Source of the DNA: Escherichia phage FFH2
Sequence record: KJ190158
Length of the DNA: 64,000 bases
Strand: one strand, 5' to 3'
The stretch's first letter is position 1, and each line of letters starts with the position of its first letter. The notes under the pieces were generated by a model. That model ran no database searches. It worked only from the letters and a program-made list of their open reading frames with translations, and had not been told where the DNA came from. This document shows, in pieces, positions 30,843 through 43,200 of the stretch. The position numbers and the translations under genes were made by a program.

Positions 30843-31168
30843 TGACATAATATGACATAATGGTGACACTGAACATAATTGACATGCCTGACTGTTTACA
30901 TAGCTAACTATTCATACAGAAATGATAAGCCATGCCATTCGTTTGCATGATAATAATTAACTTGTTTACAATAGATGACATAATATAAAAGCAGGGCAAC
31001 TATTAGAAGATCTATAGTTGCCTTGCTTGTTATGTCATGATTAACTAAATACAAGGCAACTATGATCTGATTAATAGTTTGCAGACAAACTATCACGGGG
31101 GTGATGGTTACTGCTTTTATATTATGTCGCGACTCCGTCGCGCCATGCCATTCGTTTGCATAGTTGCC
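30843..31168. repeat. cluster of three short repeat families (TGACATAAT, GGCAACTAT half-sites, 20-mer GCCATGCCATTCGTTTGCAT)
   Basis: TGACATAAT at 30843, 30853 and 30976, plus inverted near-copies at 31029 and 31121. GGCAACTAT/ATAGTTGCC at 30995, 31014, 31055, 31074, 31086 and 31160. The 20-mer at 30929-30948 and 31142-31161. Confidence 0.8.
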
Positions 31169-35620: not shown

Positions 35621-35654
35621 AAAATAATAAAGGCCATGCGGTTGCATGGCCTTT
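35621..35654 (-). terminator. rho-independent terminator
   Basis: Minus strand: AAAGGCCATGC-aacc-GCATGGCCTTT followed by ATTATTTT. Confidence 0.75.
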
Positions 35655-35689
35655 ATGTGATTATATTGCTGCAGGCCCTGCTAGGGGCC

Positions 35690-36040
35690 TTATTTTGCAT
35701 TCTTGCCTGTATTGCCGCCACGGTACCAGCGTCTGCGGTGAAAATGGTAATAATCACCCTCGGCATTAAACATCAGATGATTTTCAATAACCAGCTTACG
35801 AAGGTAGGCCGGATCTTGTTCCATTCTTGCCAGATTCCAGCGGCTGTTACGTAAGCGTATAAATTCCATATTCAGGCCGTTGATTGCAGTATGGATGTCA
35901 AAGTAACCACCTTTGAGACGTTCACGCATGGCGTTAAGCTCAACACAATATACAGATTTCTCACAAATCAAGGTATTAGCTATGGCGCGGACCTGGGCAA
36001 GGGGGTTAAGCTCATTAAGGTAATATAGTTTTATTTTCAT
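35690..36040 (-). CDS. hypothetical protein
   Basis: 116-aa ORF translationally coupled to the upstream gene. Confidence 0.55.
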   Translation of the reverse strand: MKIKLYYLNELNPLAQVRAIANTLICEKSVYCVELNAMRERLKGGYFDIHTAINGLNMEFIRLRNSRWNLARMEQDPAYLRKLVIENHLMFNAEGDYYHFHRRRWYRGGNTGKNAK

Positions 36041-36057: not shown

Positions 36058-36366
36058 TTAGTTTGAGAAAACATCGTTCACAATAGCGATCACAATGCCG
36101 CCCACCTTGTCACGGTCAACAACGCACAAATCACCATAGATCATGCGGTAGTCTGGATGATCTTTCACAGAATAGTCAATAAGTGTTTTCTTGTCGTCCA
36201 GCTTCGTAACTTCCATTCTCATAACGATATGAGAATCATCAAAGGCATTATTCCGAAAAGTCATAGCCTGACCGCCAGGGCACCCGGTGATCTCCACTTC
36301 CACACCATCTACGATCTGACCATCAAAGAAATAAAGATTATTAGCCTGGATAAACATGTCTATCAC
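36058..36366 (-). CDS. hypothetical protein
   Basis: 102-aa ORF with an AAGGAG SD, downstream of promoter cassette copy 1. Confidence 0.55.
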   Translation of the reverse strand: MIDMFIQANNLYFFDGQIVDGVEVEITGCPGGQAMTFRNNAFDDSHIVMRMEVTKLDDKKTLIDYSVKDHPDYRMIYGDLCVVDRDKVGGIVIAIVNDVFSN

Positions 36367-36403
36367 TCCTTGTTAACTGCGTGGTCTTTTAACAGGGTTT
36401 AAA

Positions 36404-36450
36404 TTTACTTTATTGATGGCCCTGAAGTCAAGGCCATCTAAAAATAAATT
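36404..36450 (-). promoter_or_regulatory. 47-bp promoter cassette, copy 1 (-35 box inside a 7-bp inverted repeat)
   Basis: Minus strand: AAATTTATTTTTA-GATGGCC-TTGACTTCA-GGGCCATC-AATAAAG-TAAATT. It begins right after the upstream stop codon. Near-identical copies lie at 40146 and 40765. Confidence 0.7.
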
Positions 36451-36651
36451 TTACAGGCCTACAATCTCTTTGATTCGTTTAACCGCCGCCTCAGCGCCTT
36501 GGGGGTAAAAATTATGGTAACCAATCACGCGAGTGATACTAATCGCCGTTTGATGATCTTCATAGTCGCCCTTGAAGATTTCTTGACCGTCAATCAGCAC
36601 GGCAATTTTTTCTTCTTTTTTGAAGTTAATAACGCGGATATTGTTGCTCAT
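36451..36651 (-). CDS. hypothetical protein
   Basis: 66-aa ORF with an AAAGGAGAAA SD after a GGGGAaacaTCCCC hairpin. A TTGCAA-17-ATAATA promoter lies upstream. Confidence 0.55.
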   Translation of the reverse strand: MSNNIRVINFKKEEKIAVLIDGQEIFKGDYEDHQTAISITRVIGYHNFYPQGAEAAVKRIKEIVGL

Positions 36652-36893
36652 TTTTGTTTCTCCTTTCTGGTTTTTGTGTTGGTGGGGATGTTTCCCCGTT
36701 GATTGTTATTATCCATATTGCGGACCAGATTGCAACACCCTGGAAGAAAAATTTTTTGAAAAAGTTAAGCCCCCATGATCGGGGGCGTTATCAGTTACTT
36801 ATAGCAATAAAGTACATTCCTACCCCTAACAATATTTCAAGGGCGATGATCTCAAGCCATACCATAACACGGCGCACCTTATCAGCGCATGGC

Positions 36894-39204: not shown

Positions 39205-39231
39205 ATAAAAAGCCCCGCACAATGGCGGGGC
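39205..39231 (-). terminator. rho-independent terminator
   Basis: Minus strand: GCCCCGC-cattgt-GCGGGGC followed by TTTTTATTT. Confidence 0.75.
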
Positions 39232-39239
39232 GTTGGTTG

Positions 39240-39437
39240 CTATTTGTCTTTGTGGCGGTATCGTTCCGCCTGTCGTTCACGTTCCAAAAGCAGGCCCGGT
39301 AATTTGCGATCATAGTGATTTCTCCAGATCTTCCCGAACCTTTTCGGTTTATTCAGTTTATTGTTACGCTGGCGGCGTTCCGGCAGCTCTTCGGAATCGT
39401 GGGGGCGCTTTACAATTTTTTCGAAATTAATTTTCAT
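39240..39437 (-). CDS. small basic protein (65 aa)
   Basis: ATG 39437 is preceded by AAAGGGGG. Rich in Arg and Lys. Confidence 0.5.
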   Translation of the reverse strand: MKINFEKIVKRPHDSEELPERRQRNNKLNKPKRFGKIWRNHYDRKLPGLLLERERQAERYRHKDK

Positions 39438-39798
39438 AAACGCCCCCTTTACTGATCTCAATATTTGCCTGAATCGCCCGGATACGACGTTTTATAGTCT
39501 CCTGATCCTTGCAATCATATCCCCAAAAGTCTACGATTTTTGCGCCGCCAGCCTTTAAGCGGTATAATGTTTCTTGCATCTTGTAAGCTGGGATCGGTCT
39601 CGGTGTTACCTGGTCCCCTTTCCCATCCTTGTACTTGATAATGTAGTCTTCGTTGTCGTTGAATACCCAAAATGGGTATTCTGTAAGCGCGTTGCTCTCT
39701 TTTTCGTTTTTGGATTGGATCTTGTTTACAATTAAAGCCGTAGCAATAGCGCCAATAATAAAACTTGCCCCGCTGATCATGTTACTTTCTCCTTTCAT
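39427..39798 (-). CDS. membrane-anchored protein
   Basis: The N-terminal ISGASFIIGAIATALIV looks like a TM anchor, followed by a soluble domain. Confidence 0.55.
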   Translation of the reverse strand: MKGESNMISGASFIIGAIATALIVNKIQSKNEKESNALTEYPFWVFNDNEDYIIKYKDGKGDQVTPRPIPAYKMQETLYRLKAGGAKIVDFWGYDCKDQETIKRRIRAIQANIEISKGGVYEN

Positions 39799-39856
39799 TG
39801 TGCTGATAAACTATCTTTATAGATGGCCCTGCCACCAGGACCACCGAAAAAACAGT

Positions 39857-40102
39857 TTATTTGACGATACCGACAAAACAGATCCCGCCTTCCCCTATAT
39901 AGGCAATATCGGTAATTTTATAATTTGTCAAGATCCGCGTGTTCAGATCATTAATAAAATCGGTCATCGCGTTGGTGTAGTTGTCTTCCGTGTCTAAGGC
40001 ATAATCCCAGGTGTAAACCTTTTTACGTCCGAAGCCTTTTACCATGATACGGGCGCTTTTGGTGTTGGTAGGGGCATAATATTTGGTAATTAGTGCGGCC
40101 AT
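39857..40102 (-). CDS. hypothetical protein
   Basis: 81-aa ORF with a TAGAGGAG SD, downstream of promoter cassette copy 2. Confidence 0.55.
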   Translation of the reverse strand: MAALITKYYAPTNTKSARIMVKGFGRKKVYTWDYALDTEDNYTNAMTDFINDLNTRILTNYKITDIAYIGEGGICFVGIVK

Positions 40103-40145
40103 TGTTTTAACTCCTCTATATTAGTTCAGTGTTAACAGTGTAAAG

Positions 40146-40192
40146 TTTACTTTATTGATGGCCCTGGAGTCAAGGCCATCTAAAAATAAATT
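40146..40192 (-). promoter_or_regulatory. 47-bp promoter cassette, copy 2
   Basis: Minus strand: AAATTTATTTTTA-GATGGCC-TTGACTCCA-GGGCCATC-AATAAAG-TAAACT. Confidence 0.7.
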
Positions 40193-40533
40193 TACTCGTT
40201 TTCTTCCAGTTCTGCAAGCTCTTCTTTCACTTCTTCAAGCTCTGTCTGTAATTCTTGGTATTCTTCATCGTCCTCAATATCCAGGCTGTCGATGTAGTCG
40301 CTAAATCCGCAGCGGTAAGCGATAGGATCTAGCTCCTTGAGGATACGCGACGGAAGAAAAGAAATGTTTCCGATCATAATTTCGCCGTAGATCTCGTCTA
40401 ACCATTCATCATAGTTTTCGTCGTACTTGTCCTCGTCGATTTCAAAGTTATCGATCTTATTCTCAAGGTCTGCGATCTGTTTTTTCAGCGCGGCGATCTG
40501 CATGGCTTTTTCTGCGGCGGTCATAGTAGTCAT
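40192..40533 (-). CDS. highly acidic coiled-coil protein (113 aa)
   Basis: About one third of residues are D or E (IDEDKYDENYDEWLDE..., DIEDDEEYQELQTELEEVKEELAELEENE). It has its own TTGACA-16-TATACT promoter and hairpin. Confidence 0.6.
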   Translation of the reverse strand: MTTMTAAEKAMQIAALKKQIADLENKIDNFEIDEDKYDENYDEWLDEIYGEIMIGNISFLPSRILKELDPIAYRCGFSDYIDSLDIEDDEEYQELQTELEEVKEELAELEENE

Positions 40534-40611
40534 GGTGTTTTCTCCTTTTGTGTGTTCTGGGAAGTTTTCCCGTTTATGTGTTTAGTATACTGATCTAAGT
40601 TAGCTTGTCAA

Positions 40612-40731
40612 TTAAAAGTTTAAGAAAAATTTTGCGATACCGTTGGCGCTACCCATCAACATTTGCGCCAGGATGTAACCAATGATGCAAACGATAATAG
40701 TTACCTTTGTGTGCTGGCGTGTAGTACTCAT
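40612..40731 (-). CDS. hydrophobic micro-protein (39 aa)
   Basis: MSTTRQHTKVTIIVCIIGYILAQMLMGSANGIAKFFLNF with an AAAGGAGG SD, downstream of promoter cassette copy 3. Confidence 0.45.
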   Translation of the reverse strand: MSTTRQHTKVTIIVCIIGYILAQMLMGSANGIAKFFLNF

Positions 40732-40764
40732 CTTCAAGCCTCCTTTTAGCTTAACTGGGATTAG

Positions 40765-40810
40765 TTTACTTTATTGATGGCCCTGGCGTCAAGACCATCT
40801 AAAAATAAAC
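40765..40810 (-). promoter_or_regulatory. 47-bp promoter cassette, copy 3
   Basis: Minus strand: AAGTTTATTTTTA-GATGGTC-TTGACGCCA-GGGCCATC-AATAAAG-TAAACT. Confidence 0.65.
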
Positions 40811-41206
40811 TTAGTAAGTTTTCAGTACTTTCCCGTCCAATCTGTCAAGCTGGATCTCGATAGCTGCAGAAAACCTATTATAAACCACATCGCCCATGGA
40901 GTCCAGCCAATCTATGACGTTATACACCTGCTCTTTATTCTTGCAAGTCCGGATCCGTTTCATTACGTAAGACGGATCAATATTAGTGCTCTCGTTGTTG
41001 TGGTCATGCGCCTGGCCTGCTGCATTAGTTATAGATTTTACAACCACCTGAAAGGGCTTTAAGGTGCCTTTTGCGTTCATCTCACGCGCTTTTGCGGCGC
41101 GGTTGTTATATGTTACACAACGGCGGCAAATGTTGACCAAATGCATATCAATAATTTTTTCATCGTTTGCCAGTTCGTTCATGATGCGGCGTACGTTCTT
41201 ATTCAT
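40811..41206 (-). CDS. hypothetical protein
   Basis: 131-aa ORF. Upstream are a TTGACA-TAAACT promoter and the hairpin GGCGGGAATGTTTCCCGCC (41225-41243). Confidence 0.6.
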   Translation of the reverse strand: MNKNVRRIMNELANDEKIIDMHLVNICRRCVTYNNRAAKAREMNAKGTLKPFQVVVKSITNAAGQAHDHNNESTNIDPSYVMKRIRTCKNKEQVYNVIDWLDSMGDVVYNRFSAAIEIQLDRLDGKVLKTY

Positions 41207-41292
41207 GATCTTTTTCCTTTGTGTTGGCGGGAAACATTCCCGCCTTTTGTGCCCAGTTTACTTTAATTTTGCAGCGTGTCAATAATTTTTTT

Positions 41293-41691: not shown

Positions 41692-41755
41692 GATTTTATC
41701 CTCTTAGTGTCTTTTGTGATTTCAGTATATTTTGTGTCGGGGCGTATGTCAATAC

Positions 41756-42629: not shown

Positions 42630-42742
42630 AATTCTAAATGAGAACTCCTCGCATTTAATAAATTTAATTAGCACGCTAATTACACTCCGTAACAATTTAC
42701 TATAAAATAGTATCCACTAAAATATTCCCATATAGAAATTTT

Positions 42743-43200
42743 AAAAATCCATTTCTGAAAACGAAAAATCGATTTCGTCCCTAAAAATTTCAGGCCTAGA
42801 TCCGGAACGATTTCCAGAAAATCCGATTCAGAAAACGAAAAACAGATCGAGTACTGAGAAATTTATCGAGAAAAATTTTCAGAAAATCCAAGCCCTGAAA
42901 TGAAAAGTAGATCGAGTACCTGGAAAGCTGCACCGCAACTTCAAGATAGTGGTTAGATTGTTACCATAGAAGGTCAAGGGTAAGTGGAGGAAGTTCTAGT
43001 AGAGGGAGGTTAGCATGTGTGGGAAATCTATAATGGTGGCCTGGAATATAGTGCAAACGATAGGATGAGTTATTCAGCTTGTCGCGCCTACTCTGAAAAA
43101 TCCATTTTAGTTTTCGATCCATTTTCTGATTTTCTAAGAATTTTAAAATATCCGGCCCGGTGAAATATCAAAAGGAGGAAATCCATTTTAGAAATCCCCC
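42743..43200. repeat. A/T-rich iteron field: three tandem ~65-73-nt units plus inverted copies of (A/G)GAAAATCC
   Basis: Units start at 42743, 42816 and 42881 (AGAAAATCCnnTTCnGAAAAYGAAAAnnAGATCGAGTAC...). Further AAATCCATTTT copies lie at 43095, 43177 and 43190, with inverted copies at 43115-43135. Confidence 0.75.

Follow-up and report, generated by a model that had tools for sequence, protein, structure and literature searches.

A repeated intergenic hairpin cassette with a putative overlaid promoter in the early region of Escherichia phage FFH2

The stretch of DNA considered here, called the window below, comprises 64,000 nucleotides of Escherichia phage FFH2 (sequence record KJ190158). 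Its minus strand contains a short repeated element, the cassette, one copy of which is found between two small genes at 36404-36450. The question raised by this locus is whether the repeat acts as a promoter, as a protein-binding palindrome or as a structure in the transcript. A first-pass annotation, made from the letters alone, described a 47-bp promoter cassette repeated three times, with the -35 hexamer in the loop of a conserved inverted repeat whose arms could act as an RNA hairpin, a palindromic operator or a cruciform. Comparison of the copies shows that the main feature under selection is a hairpin, about 49 nt long, formed by the sense transcript. This larger hairpin, a fourth structural copy and a role of the cassette in recombination were missed by that annotation. 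In the explanation that we prefer, and which we hold with slightly better than even confidence, the cassette is a composite of the promoter-early stem-loop (PeSL) kind, in which an RNase III-type hairpin, an overlaid promoter and a recombination joint are combined.

The cassette repeat is real, far beyond chance, and forms a small family. A 50-nt probe compared with the window matched the minus strand at 36402-36451 (copy 1, 2 mismatches), 40144-40193 (copy 2, 0 mismatches), 40763-40812 (copy 3, 3 mismatches) and 39809-39858 (copy 4, 16 mismatches), and at no other place. The three near-identical copies are located where they had been reported, differing from the probe at 0-3 of 50 nt, while the sequence near 39826 that had been taken for a partial fourth copy is actually a complete structural homologue covering 39806-39860. 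The four cassettes also appeared as the top family in a repeat search of the window, with a length of 63 nt. A covariance model scored them at 74-86 bits (E about 1e-13 to 1e-15), and the next match in the 64 kb was at 15.6 bits (E 2.3). The first-pass annotation had advised a search for further copies in the genome and in relatives. The model finds exactly four in the complete rV5 genome (138 kb), located between open reading frames 194/193, 192/191, 191/190 and 179/178, and the cassette is present in about 119 phage records by blastn. A genome-wide class of promoters is ruled out, as there are only four copies in rV5 and four in the window.

Over the 6 kb around the cassettes, the identity to rV5-like coliphages of the genus Vequintavirus, more than 100 in number (A6-1, SophiaRose and rV5 among them), is 94-97%. 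The cassettes belong to a minus-strand block of small early genes that are annotated as hypothetical in the relatives, and all of the cassette-flanking proteins belong to PHROG families of unknown function. Using blastn, nothing was found beyond Vequintavirus except for the phage KKE7M. In the 146-kb genome of the Salmonella phage PVP-SE1 (Seunavirus), the covariance model gave no homologue in the roughly 100 kb outside the segment 50-96 kb. A pattern scan of IMG/VR returned 15 loci, 3 of which were genuine, all on two rV5-like contigs. Within these searches the cassette is confined to Vequintavirus plus one transfer, and it is a rarer second type beside the commoner cassettes with a promoter and a 5' hairpin that are described below. 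A scan with Rfam 15 gave no family at the cassettes with E up to 1, and the cassette sites are not among the 33 promoters and 20 terminators in the published rV5 tables. In the course of these searches, 17 GenBank records within MG065635-MG065689, named 'Campylobacter phage' with the host Campylobacter jejuni, were found to be about 95% identical over the whole 6-kb region; their naming or host looks doubtful from this similarity.

The sense (minus-strand) RNA of all four copies in the window folds into the same minimum-free-energy architecture, with a free energy (dG) of -22 to -28 kcal/mol and a z-score (z) of -4.7 to -7.2. The hairpin consists of an A/U lower stem of 8-10 bp (13 in copy 4), which begins at the upstream stop codon, an internal loop with 2 unpaired nt in its 5' strand and 3 in its 3' strand, a G/C-rich upper stem of 10 bp and a tetraloop. 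The inverted repeat that had been described is present but was understated, since the second, A/U-rich stem extends the palindrome to about 49 nt. The placement of the -35 hexamer in the loop is correct only for the AC of TTGAC; because the pairing comprises 10 bp with a 4-nt loop, the TTG is found in the stem. The plus-strand fold of the cassettes is far poorer (z +0.3 to -3.0), because several sense G·U pairs turn into C·A there. In the covariance model the antisense strand scores 30-42 bits, about half of the 74-86 bits of the sense strand.

Conservation of the fold was assessed in a gap-free alignment of 36 distinct sense copies from 13 sources, namely the window, 10 GenBank phage genomes and 2 rV5-like IMG/VR contigs. 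Pairing was scored at columns 13-20/50-57 and 23-32/37-46, or 648 pair cells. Standard pairs are found in 98.5% of these cells, compared with 40-56% when the partners are slid by 1-3 columns. In the lower stem, both partners have changed in three pairs (UA/CG, UA/GU/AU and AU/UA). In the upper stem, five pairs show one-sided variation, in every case via G·U, and a single cell is unpaired. An independent run of RNAalifold gave the same fold and added the pairs 11-59 and 12-58, the latter being a fourth covarying pair (A-U/G-C/G-U). Compared with the other types, copy 4 keeps every pair by means of an A:U to U:A flip, U:A to G:U and U:A to C:G changes, and three wobble changes in the upper stem. 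The hairpin is also kept in a natural variant located outside the alignment on an rV5-like IMG/VR contig (L011:2764-2833), where the U·G at pair 17-53 has become U-A. The loop and the 3' flank of this variant are each longer by one base, and its promoter spacer would be 20 bp. The six bases A48 U49 A50 A51 A52 G53 are invariant in 36/36 aligned copies. Because copy 4 and the L011 variant keep the hairpin while the promoter is lost or mis-spaced, the hairpin, not the promoter, is evidently the constant feature of the cassette.

Several considerations reduce the weight of this comparison. The covariation comes from few independent events, the main contrast being that of type 4 with the other three copies. 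The pair counts are inflated by the close similarity of the genomes (90-97% identity) and by the exchange of sequence among the copies. In addition, the strand asymmetry fits a hairpin in RNA and a hairpin in the non-template DNA strand alike.

The asymmetry and the kind of changes also bear on the suggestion that the arms are a palindromic operator or a cruciform. Such an explanation would require a sigma-70 promoter in which an operator, bound by a dimeric protein of the phage or the host, or an extruded cruciform overlaps the -35 hexamer. The sequences GATGGCC/GGCCATC are indeed placed around TTGAC in three copies, and the presence of four sites only is like a small regulon. However, at no fewer than five pair positions, that is at least 5, a sense G·U corresponds to a C·A mismatch on the opposite strand, and both the symmetry of the duplex and a cruciform are poorly preserved. 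The flanking lower stem evolves by compensatory change and keeps its pairs, not the half-site sequence; the same is true of copy 4 as a whole, which has no promoter. The half-sites are 17 bp apart centre to centre and would be found on opposite faces of the helix. These two suggestions of the first-pass annotation are not borne out, and we consider an operator or cruciform very unlikely.

The four copies (all coordinates minus strand) can be described as follows. Copy 1, 36402..36453, is located between a 66-aa gene (36451-36651) and a 99-aa gene (ATG 36357). It consists of the stop codon TAA at 36453-36451, the lower stem 36450-36441/36411-36402, the upper stem 36438-36429/36424-36415 and the tetraloop 36428-36425, with a putative -35 TTGACT at 36431-36426 and a -10 TAAATT at 36407-36402 (dG -23.6 kcal/mol, z -4.7; 81.6 bits in the covariance model). 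Copy 2, 40144..40194, is found between a 113-aa gene (40192-40533) and an 81-aa gene (39857-40102). Its stop codon is at 40194-40192, its upper stem at 40180-40171/40166-40157 with the loop ACTC, and its putative promoter has -35 TTGACT at 40173-40168 and -10 TAAACT at 40149-40144 (dG -24.3 kcal/mol, z -7.2; 85.9 bits). Copy 3, 40763..40813, separates a 131-aa gene (40811-41206) from the gene of a 39-aa membrane peptide (40612-40731). It has its stop codon at 40813-40811, the upper stem 40799-40790/40785-40776 with a U·G pair in place of the C-G of the other copies, the loop ACGC, and a putative promoter with -35 TTGACG at 40792-40787 and -10 TAAACT at 40768-40763 (dG -22.3 kcal/mol, z -6.2; 82.2 bits). 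Copy 4, 39806..39860, is the diverged type 4, placed between the 81-aa gene and a 123-aa gene (39427-39798). Its stop codon is at 39859-39857, and it has a 13-bp lower stem, a 2x3 internal loop, a 10-bp upper stem and the loop GUGG; CTGGTG is found at the place of the -35 hexamer and there is no usable -10 (dG -28.2 kcal/mol, z -6.9; 74.1 bits).

The first-pass annotation was right that each copy starts at the upstream stop codon, and this holds for all four copies of the window, where the stop codon occupies columns 8-11 of the alignment. It had given a distance of 40-50 nt to the next Shine-Dalgarno (SD) sequence; the distance is actually 31-44 nt from the inverted repeat and 18-33 nt from the putative -10. 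The cassettes are internal to operons, with a consensus promoter before them and the next terminator after them. A unit that extends from a promoter at 41752 to a terminator at 39231 is divided by copies 3, 2 and 4, and copy 1 is found between terminators at 36786 and 35656.

This position between cistrons of operons might suggest that the hairpin is an attenuator or terminator, as proposed for the PeSLs of T4-type phages, after which the embedded promoter restarts transcription and insulates the downstream gene. There is a precedent in phage RB49, where a PeSL stem-loop reduced lacZ expression as strongly as rrnB T1 (PMC2839356), and three of the cassettes have promoter-like sequence. However, no U-tract is present on either strand. 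Copy 4 lacks a restart promoter, and a terminator at this copy would leave the 123-aa gene unexpressed. Termination would also require neither the conserved internal loop nor the long lower stem of A/U pairs. We therefore find a terminator improbable. An intrinsic terminator in particular is rejected, because the U-tract is absent 3' of the hairpin, where the flank reads AAUAAAGUAAA in the sense and UAAAAAUAAA in the antisense direction. A terminator scan of the window reported 28 other terminator-like sites (for example 39231, 35656 and 46754) and none at the cassettes. One of these regions, 35626-35692, contains two adjacent strong hairpins that are terminator-like on both strands, the minus strand reading ATAAAGGCCATGC...GCATGGCCTTTAT followed by TATTTT; it is a predicted bidirectional terminator closing the operon with copy 1.

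The same position next to the stop codon would fit a passive element without RNase III, resembling the repetitive extragenic palindromic (REP) sequences. The hairpin would then be a barrier to 3'-5' exonucleases, or its stem at the stop codon would stall terminating ribosomes, or both, and so tune the yield of the upstream gene. Like the REP elements, the cassette is transcribed as an imperfect palindrome that is found in operons no more than about 12 nt from a stop codon; it has a stable upper stem, and its copies recombine. On the other hand, a passive barrier needs no 2x3 internal loop, no invariant AUAAAG, no upper stem fixed at 10 bp and no second helical turn, and all of these are kept in copy 4. 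The cassette also has no resemblance to REP sequences and belongs to no Rfam family. A passive element is, in our view, about as improbable as a terminator, or slightly more so.

The most likely role of the hairpin, by our analysis, would be that of a signal for RNase III-type processing and 3'-end protection. This role is inferred because the geometry of the hairpin matches that of T7-type sites. According to Pertzev and Nicholson (PMC1540722), substrates of E. coli RNase III typically span two helical turns, the minimum distance from the loop to the cut is 11 bp, and internal loops restrict the cut to one strand, leaving a 3' hairpin that is protective against exonucleases. In the cassette, stems of 10 bp and 8-10 bp (to 13 bp in copy 4) are joined across the 2x3 internal loop and span two turns. 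With an upper stem of 10 bp, the 11th position from the loop is A22/A47 (or C22/U47) of the internal loop. The optimal distal box in the same study is U-A followed by U·G, adjoining the loop-closing pair. Counted from the loop, the upper stem of the cassette has the closing pair G32-C37, then U31-A38 and U30·G39, which is the canonical UA/UG distal box and is found in 24 of the 25 type 1-3 copies. For the proximal box the optimum, which was defined on a minimal substrate, is G-C, W-W, A-U, W-W, and G-C is disfavoured at positions 2 and 4 (PMC1540722). Position 2 of the cassette (the ninth pair) is A-U, with G·U in its place in type 4, and there is no pair at position 4; the proximal box thus contains no antideterminant. 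The invariant bases A48-G53 are located where the RNase III cut would be expected.

The early intergenic sites of phage T7 provide a comparison. The positions of R0.3, R0.5, R1, R1.1 and R1.3 that we folded are presumed ones, after Dunn and Studier 1983. At these positions the T7 transcripts form hairpins similar to one another, in which the upper stem comprises 9-10 bp and tetraloops, internal loops and G·U pairs are present; in the R1 fold, a 2x3 internal loop is placed above a lower stem of 8 bp. Of the three roles first proposed for the arms, the RNA hairpin is retained in part: processing is favoured by the sense-only fold, by the compensatory and G·U changes and by the fold kept in copy 4, while intrinsic termination is not.

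Some observations do not agree well with cleavage by RNase III. Type 4 has C30-G39 at position 2 of the distal box, as does T7 R0.5 in the computed fold, and positions 1 (U-A) and 3 (G-C) of the proximal box are off the optimum. A literature search for transcript-end data or transcriptomes of rV5-like phages (Vequintavirus) found none, and for this reason both RNase III cleavage and promoter activity are inferences.

The invariant bases could have a different meaning. Across all types A48 and U49 of the internal loop never vary, nor does the AAAG next to them, which suggests sequence-specific recognition by some factor. This might be a phage RNA-binding regulator, or the cassette might be a cis-acting RNA of the nut or put kind that modifies RNA polymerase. 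No candidate protein was found, as the flanking genes are all of PHROG unknown function. The hairpin is about 30-45 nt from the SD and translation would therefore not be occluded, and three copies within 1 kb would be odd for an antitermination site. The invariant bases would fit an RNase III cut site just as well. We regard a regulator or antitermination site as very unlikely, to the same degree as the operator, and retain RNase III processing as the preferred role of the hairpin.

It remains to consider the promoter from which the cassette was first named. A consensus scan finds TTGACN-18-TAAAYT in copies 1-3, with 9-10/12 matches and a spacer of 18 bp. In many relatives the -35 hexamer is a perfect TTGACA, and the L011 variant reads TTGATA. 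The 10-nt sequence AAAGTAAACT is identical to the -10 context of a standard promoter at 41282-41255, which is P194 of the rV5 annotation. That promoter belongs to an early promoter element at 41215..41282 (minus strand) that is not a copy of the cassette and consists of an A-tract, TTGACA, a 16-bp spacer, AAAGTAAACT, a GC hairpin, an SD and an ATG. In the phi92-like phage UAB_1, the sequence AATAAAGTAAA is the -10 region of a TTGCAA-16-TAAACT promoter, which is followed by a 5' hairpin and an SD. The tract AAATTTATTTT upstream of the cassette promoter matches the UP-element consensus AAAWWTWTTTT (PMC2412878). In the loop, A33 and C34, the AC of TTGAC, are invariant in the 25 aligned type 1-3 copies, while three and two states occur at the two loop bases that follow. 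This invariance is suggestive of a promoter, though it comes from few events. The tract AAATTTATTTT is located within 1 nt of the presumed usual position of UP elements, after Estrem et al. 1998.

Other results make the promoter less certain. The 9/12 score class is at the level of noise, with 65 sites found and 40 expected from shuffled sequence, and the other early promoters of the phage reach 11-12/12 with spacers of 16-17 bp. The 20-bp spacer occurs in one natural variant, L011:2764-2833. The pairing alone, including the RNAalifold pairs 11-59 and 12-58, can account for the conserved TTG and -10 hexamer. An argument that the -10 is more conserved than its pairing partners was dropped, since these two pairs account for its conservation. 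The claim of a promoter thus stands as plausible for three copies, with the AAAGTAAACT context and AAATTTATTTT in its support, and fails for copy 4. We judge that copies 1-3 are probably active sigma-70 promoters, with a confidence slightly above even; copy 4 is not a promoter. The first-pass annotation also expected the three genes served (36058-36366, 39857-40102 and 40612-40731) to be co-regulated, which is conjectural. N4-like hairpin promoters have a 5-7-bp stem and a 3-nt loop and are read by a phage virion RNA polymerase. A promoter of this kind is ruled out for the cassette, which has a 10-bp stem and a 4-nt loop, and for rV5 a dependence on the host polymerase has been reported, no phage RNA polymerase being listed in the rV5 paper.

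The element at 41282-41215 is one of the commoner cassettes of the window, which are also found on the minus strand at 40611-40547, 38744-38679 and 36735-36680. Each has a consensus sigma-70 promoter, a short GC hairpin after the start site, an SD and an ATG. Such cassettes are repeated with high similarity in this phage, in KKE7M and in PVP-SE1. They probably provide stabilizing 5'-terminal hairpins and further recombination joints.

From these considerations the following mechanism is proposed. The cassette would be a composite intergenic unit, a promoter plus a stem-loop, placed between the cistrons of polycistronic early operons. In transcripts reading through it, the hairpin would be a signal for the host RNase III of the T7 R1/R1.1 type. 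A single cut within the invariant AAU/AAAG, placed either in the 3' side of the internal loop or just beside it, would detach the cistrons from each other and leave the upper hairpin as the protective 3' end of the upstream mRNA. In copies 1-3 a moderate sigma-70 promoter, formed by AAATTTATTTT, TTGACN, the 18-bp spacer and AAAGTAAAYT, would restart transcription about 15 nt past the proposed cut, and the processed and the primary downstream mRNAs would therefore be almost alike. A more far-reaching possibility is that one sequence of 50 nt is read twice, as sigma-70 promoter in DNA and as RNase III hairpin in RNA, and serves in addition as a portable joint between phage subfamilies. The TTG of the -35 would then double as the distal box of RNase III (U·G, U-A and the closing G-C), and the -10 region as the 3' strand of the lower stem. 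We offer this double reading tentatively and consider it rather doubtful.

The exchange of genes at the cassettes is seen most clearly in a 619-bp module at 40194..40812 (minus strand), which is bounded by copies 3 and 2. It contains the gene of the 39-aa peptide, a consensus promoter at 40611-40584 (TTGACA-16-TATACT) with a 5' hairpin, and the 113-aa gene. The module is absent, and one chimeric cassette is left, in the phages ime, magaca, phiWec189 and ECP32 and in an IMG/VR contig. For ime, ECP32 and the contig, the alignment with the window breaks off at 40763 and continues from 40190, and the chimeric cassette has its 5' flank from copy 3 and its 3' flank from copy 2. A query with the junction found the same arrangement with a single cassette in magaca and phiWec189, and most of the 119 records have the 619-bp module.

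A related exchange is found in KKE7M, a phi92-like phage of the genus Justusliebigvirus (Stephanstirmvirinae). This phage contains the sequence of the window from 40612 to 40146 at 95.9% identity, and its relatives have just 76-77% cover of the same 1.9-kb query. The homology extends from the first base of the -35 of promoter 40611 to the -10 region of the cassette, where AATAAAGTAAA is the junction. In UAB_1, the one relative of KKE7M that was read, a different 72-aa gene is located at the position of the module, with its right junction in the shared AATAAAGTAAA. The loop variants ACTC, ACAC and ACTT occur at differing paralogous positions across genomes, which points to gene conversion among the copies of the cassette. 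By comparison of these genomes the cassettes are shown to be sites of homologous recombination and gene conversion, by which single-gene modules are added, removed and exported; the near identity of the copies explains recombination at them. Further patches of KKE7M with 77-94% identity correspond to 37913-37580, 34851-34658, 34585-34494 and 34196-33918 of the window, and indicate a wider mosaic exchange of early modules between the two subfamilies to which Vequintavirus and the Justusliebigvirus KKE7M belong.

Two other features of the window were observed. At 42726-42926, in a gene-poor gap of the early region, there are three A/T-rich tandem repeats of about 65-75 nt ending in GATCGAGTAC. 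Tandem arrays of the same layout are present in PVP-SE1 (L032:30985-31193, which shares the GATCGAG ending) and in KKE7M (L002:3048-3268). These arrays look like iterons, possibly of an origin or a regulator array. At 30973-31038 a near-perfect hairpin of 26-28 bp folds on both strands (dG -34 and -27 kcal/mol), apparently in the stretch corresponding to the one called 'non-coding' in the rV5 paper.

The rV5-like phages are widely used in the biocontrol of E. coli O157 and in phage-therapy cocktails, and their early transcription is known only from consensus searches, which missed the cassette. If the RNase III site is true, early expression would depend on host RNA processing, as in T7. The comparison of genomes shows the break points of module exchange to be set by regulatory cassettes and not by coding homology alone, both within Vequintavirus and between Vequintavirinae and Stephanstirmvirinae. 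The idea of PeSLs is thereby extended beyond the T4-like phages, and the cassettes offer natural insertion points for engineering.

Among known systems, the RNase III sites of T7 are like the cassette in being repeated, mutually similar hairpins between cistrons, in which a weak lower stem of A/U pairs follows an internal loop near the 11th position. R1.1 and cassette types 1-3 have in common the UA/UG distal box that adjoins the loop-closing pair (PMC1540722), and a protective 3' hairpin remains after the single cut in T7. However, there is no homology, positions 1 and 3 of the proximal box differ, and cleavage of the cassette is predicted only. The adjacent promoters in T7 are separate elements for the T7 RNA polymerase, whereas the host-type promoter of the cassette would sit inside the hairpin. 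The REP elements and bacterial interspersed mosaic elements (BIMEs) of E. coli are also transcribed imperfect palindromes just past stop codons in operons, and they can stabilize the upstream mRNA and promote rearrangements. They have no sequence similarity to the cassette, which is phage-borne, has two helices and carries an overlaid putative promoter. The piece found in KKE7M resembles the morons of lambdoid phages in being self-contained, with a promoter, a 5' hairpin, one gene and a 3' hairpin, and in replacing another gene at the same position. In contrast, the 3' element of the cassette is not a factor-independent terminator, and the exchange takes place by homology within regulatory cassettes of virulent phages, while morons insert into the late operon of a prophage.

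The closest relationship is to the PeSL cassettes of the T4-like phages RB49/phi1, PST and nt-1 (Arbiol et al. 2010, PMC2839356; Comeau et al. 2014, PMC4122927). In each case a unit repeated between genes begins, within an AT-rich tract, at the stop codon of the preceding gene, and it combines a sigma-70-type promoter, putative in the cassette, with a stem-loop that contains G-T pairs and may overlap the -35. Both are associated with small genes of unknown function in an early or hyperplastic region, where the copies flank single-gene modules that differ among close relatives through recombination inside the cassette. The cassette has several of the features by which PeSLs are recognized: a repeat extending from the stop codon towards the SD, a stable stem-loop with G-T pairing at the putative promoter, and exchange of modules among small variable genes. 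It differs in that it comes from Vequintavirus, has no sequence homology to the PeSLs and is present in four copies per genome. Its putative promoter is below consensus, with an 18-bp spacer, and is missing from one copy. Its stem-loop is a two-part structure of about 20 bp with an internal loop, compared with the short G-run/C-run stem of the PeSLs, and looks like a processing site rather than a terminator. The cassette is best filed as a composite of the PeSL kind and is nothing categorically new.

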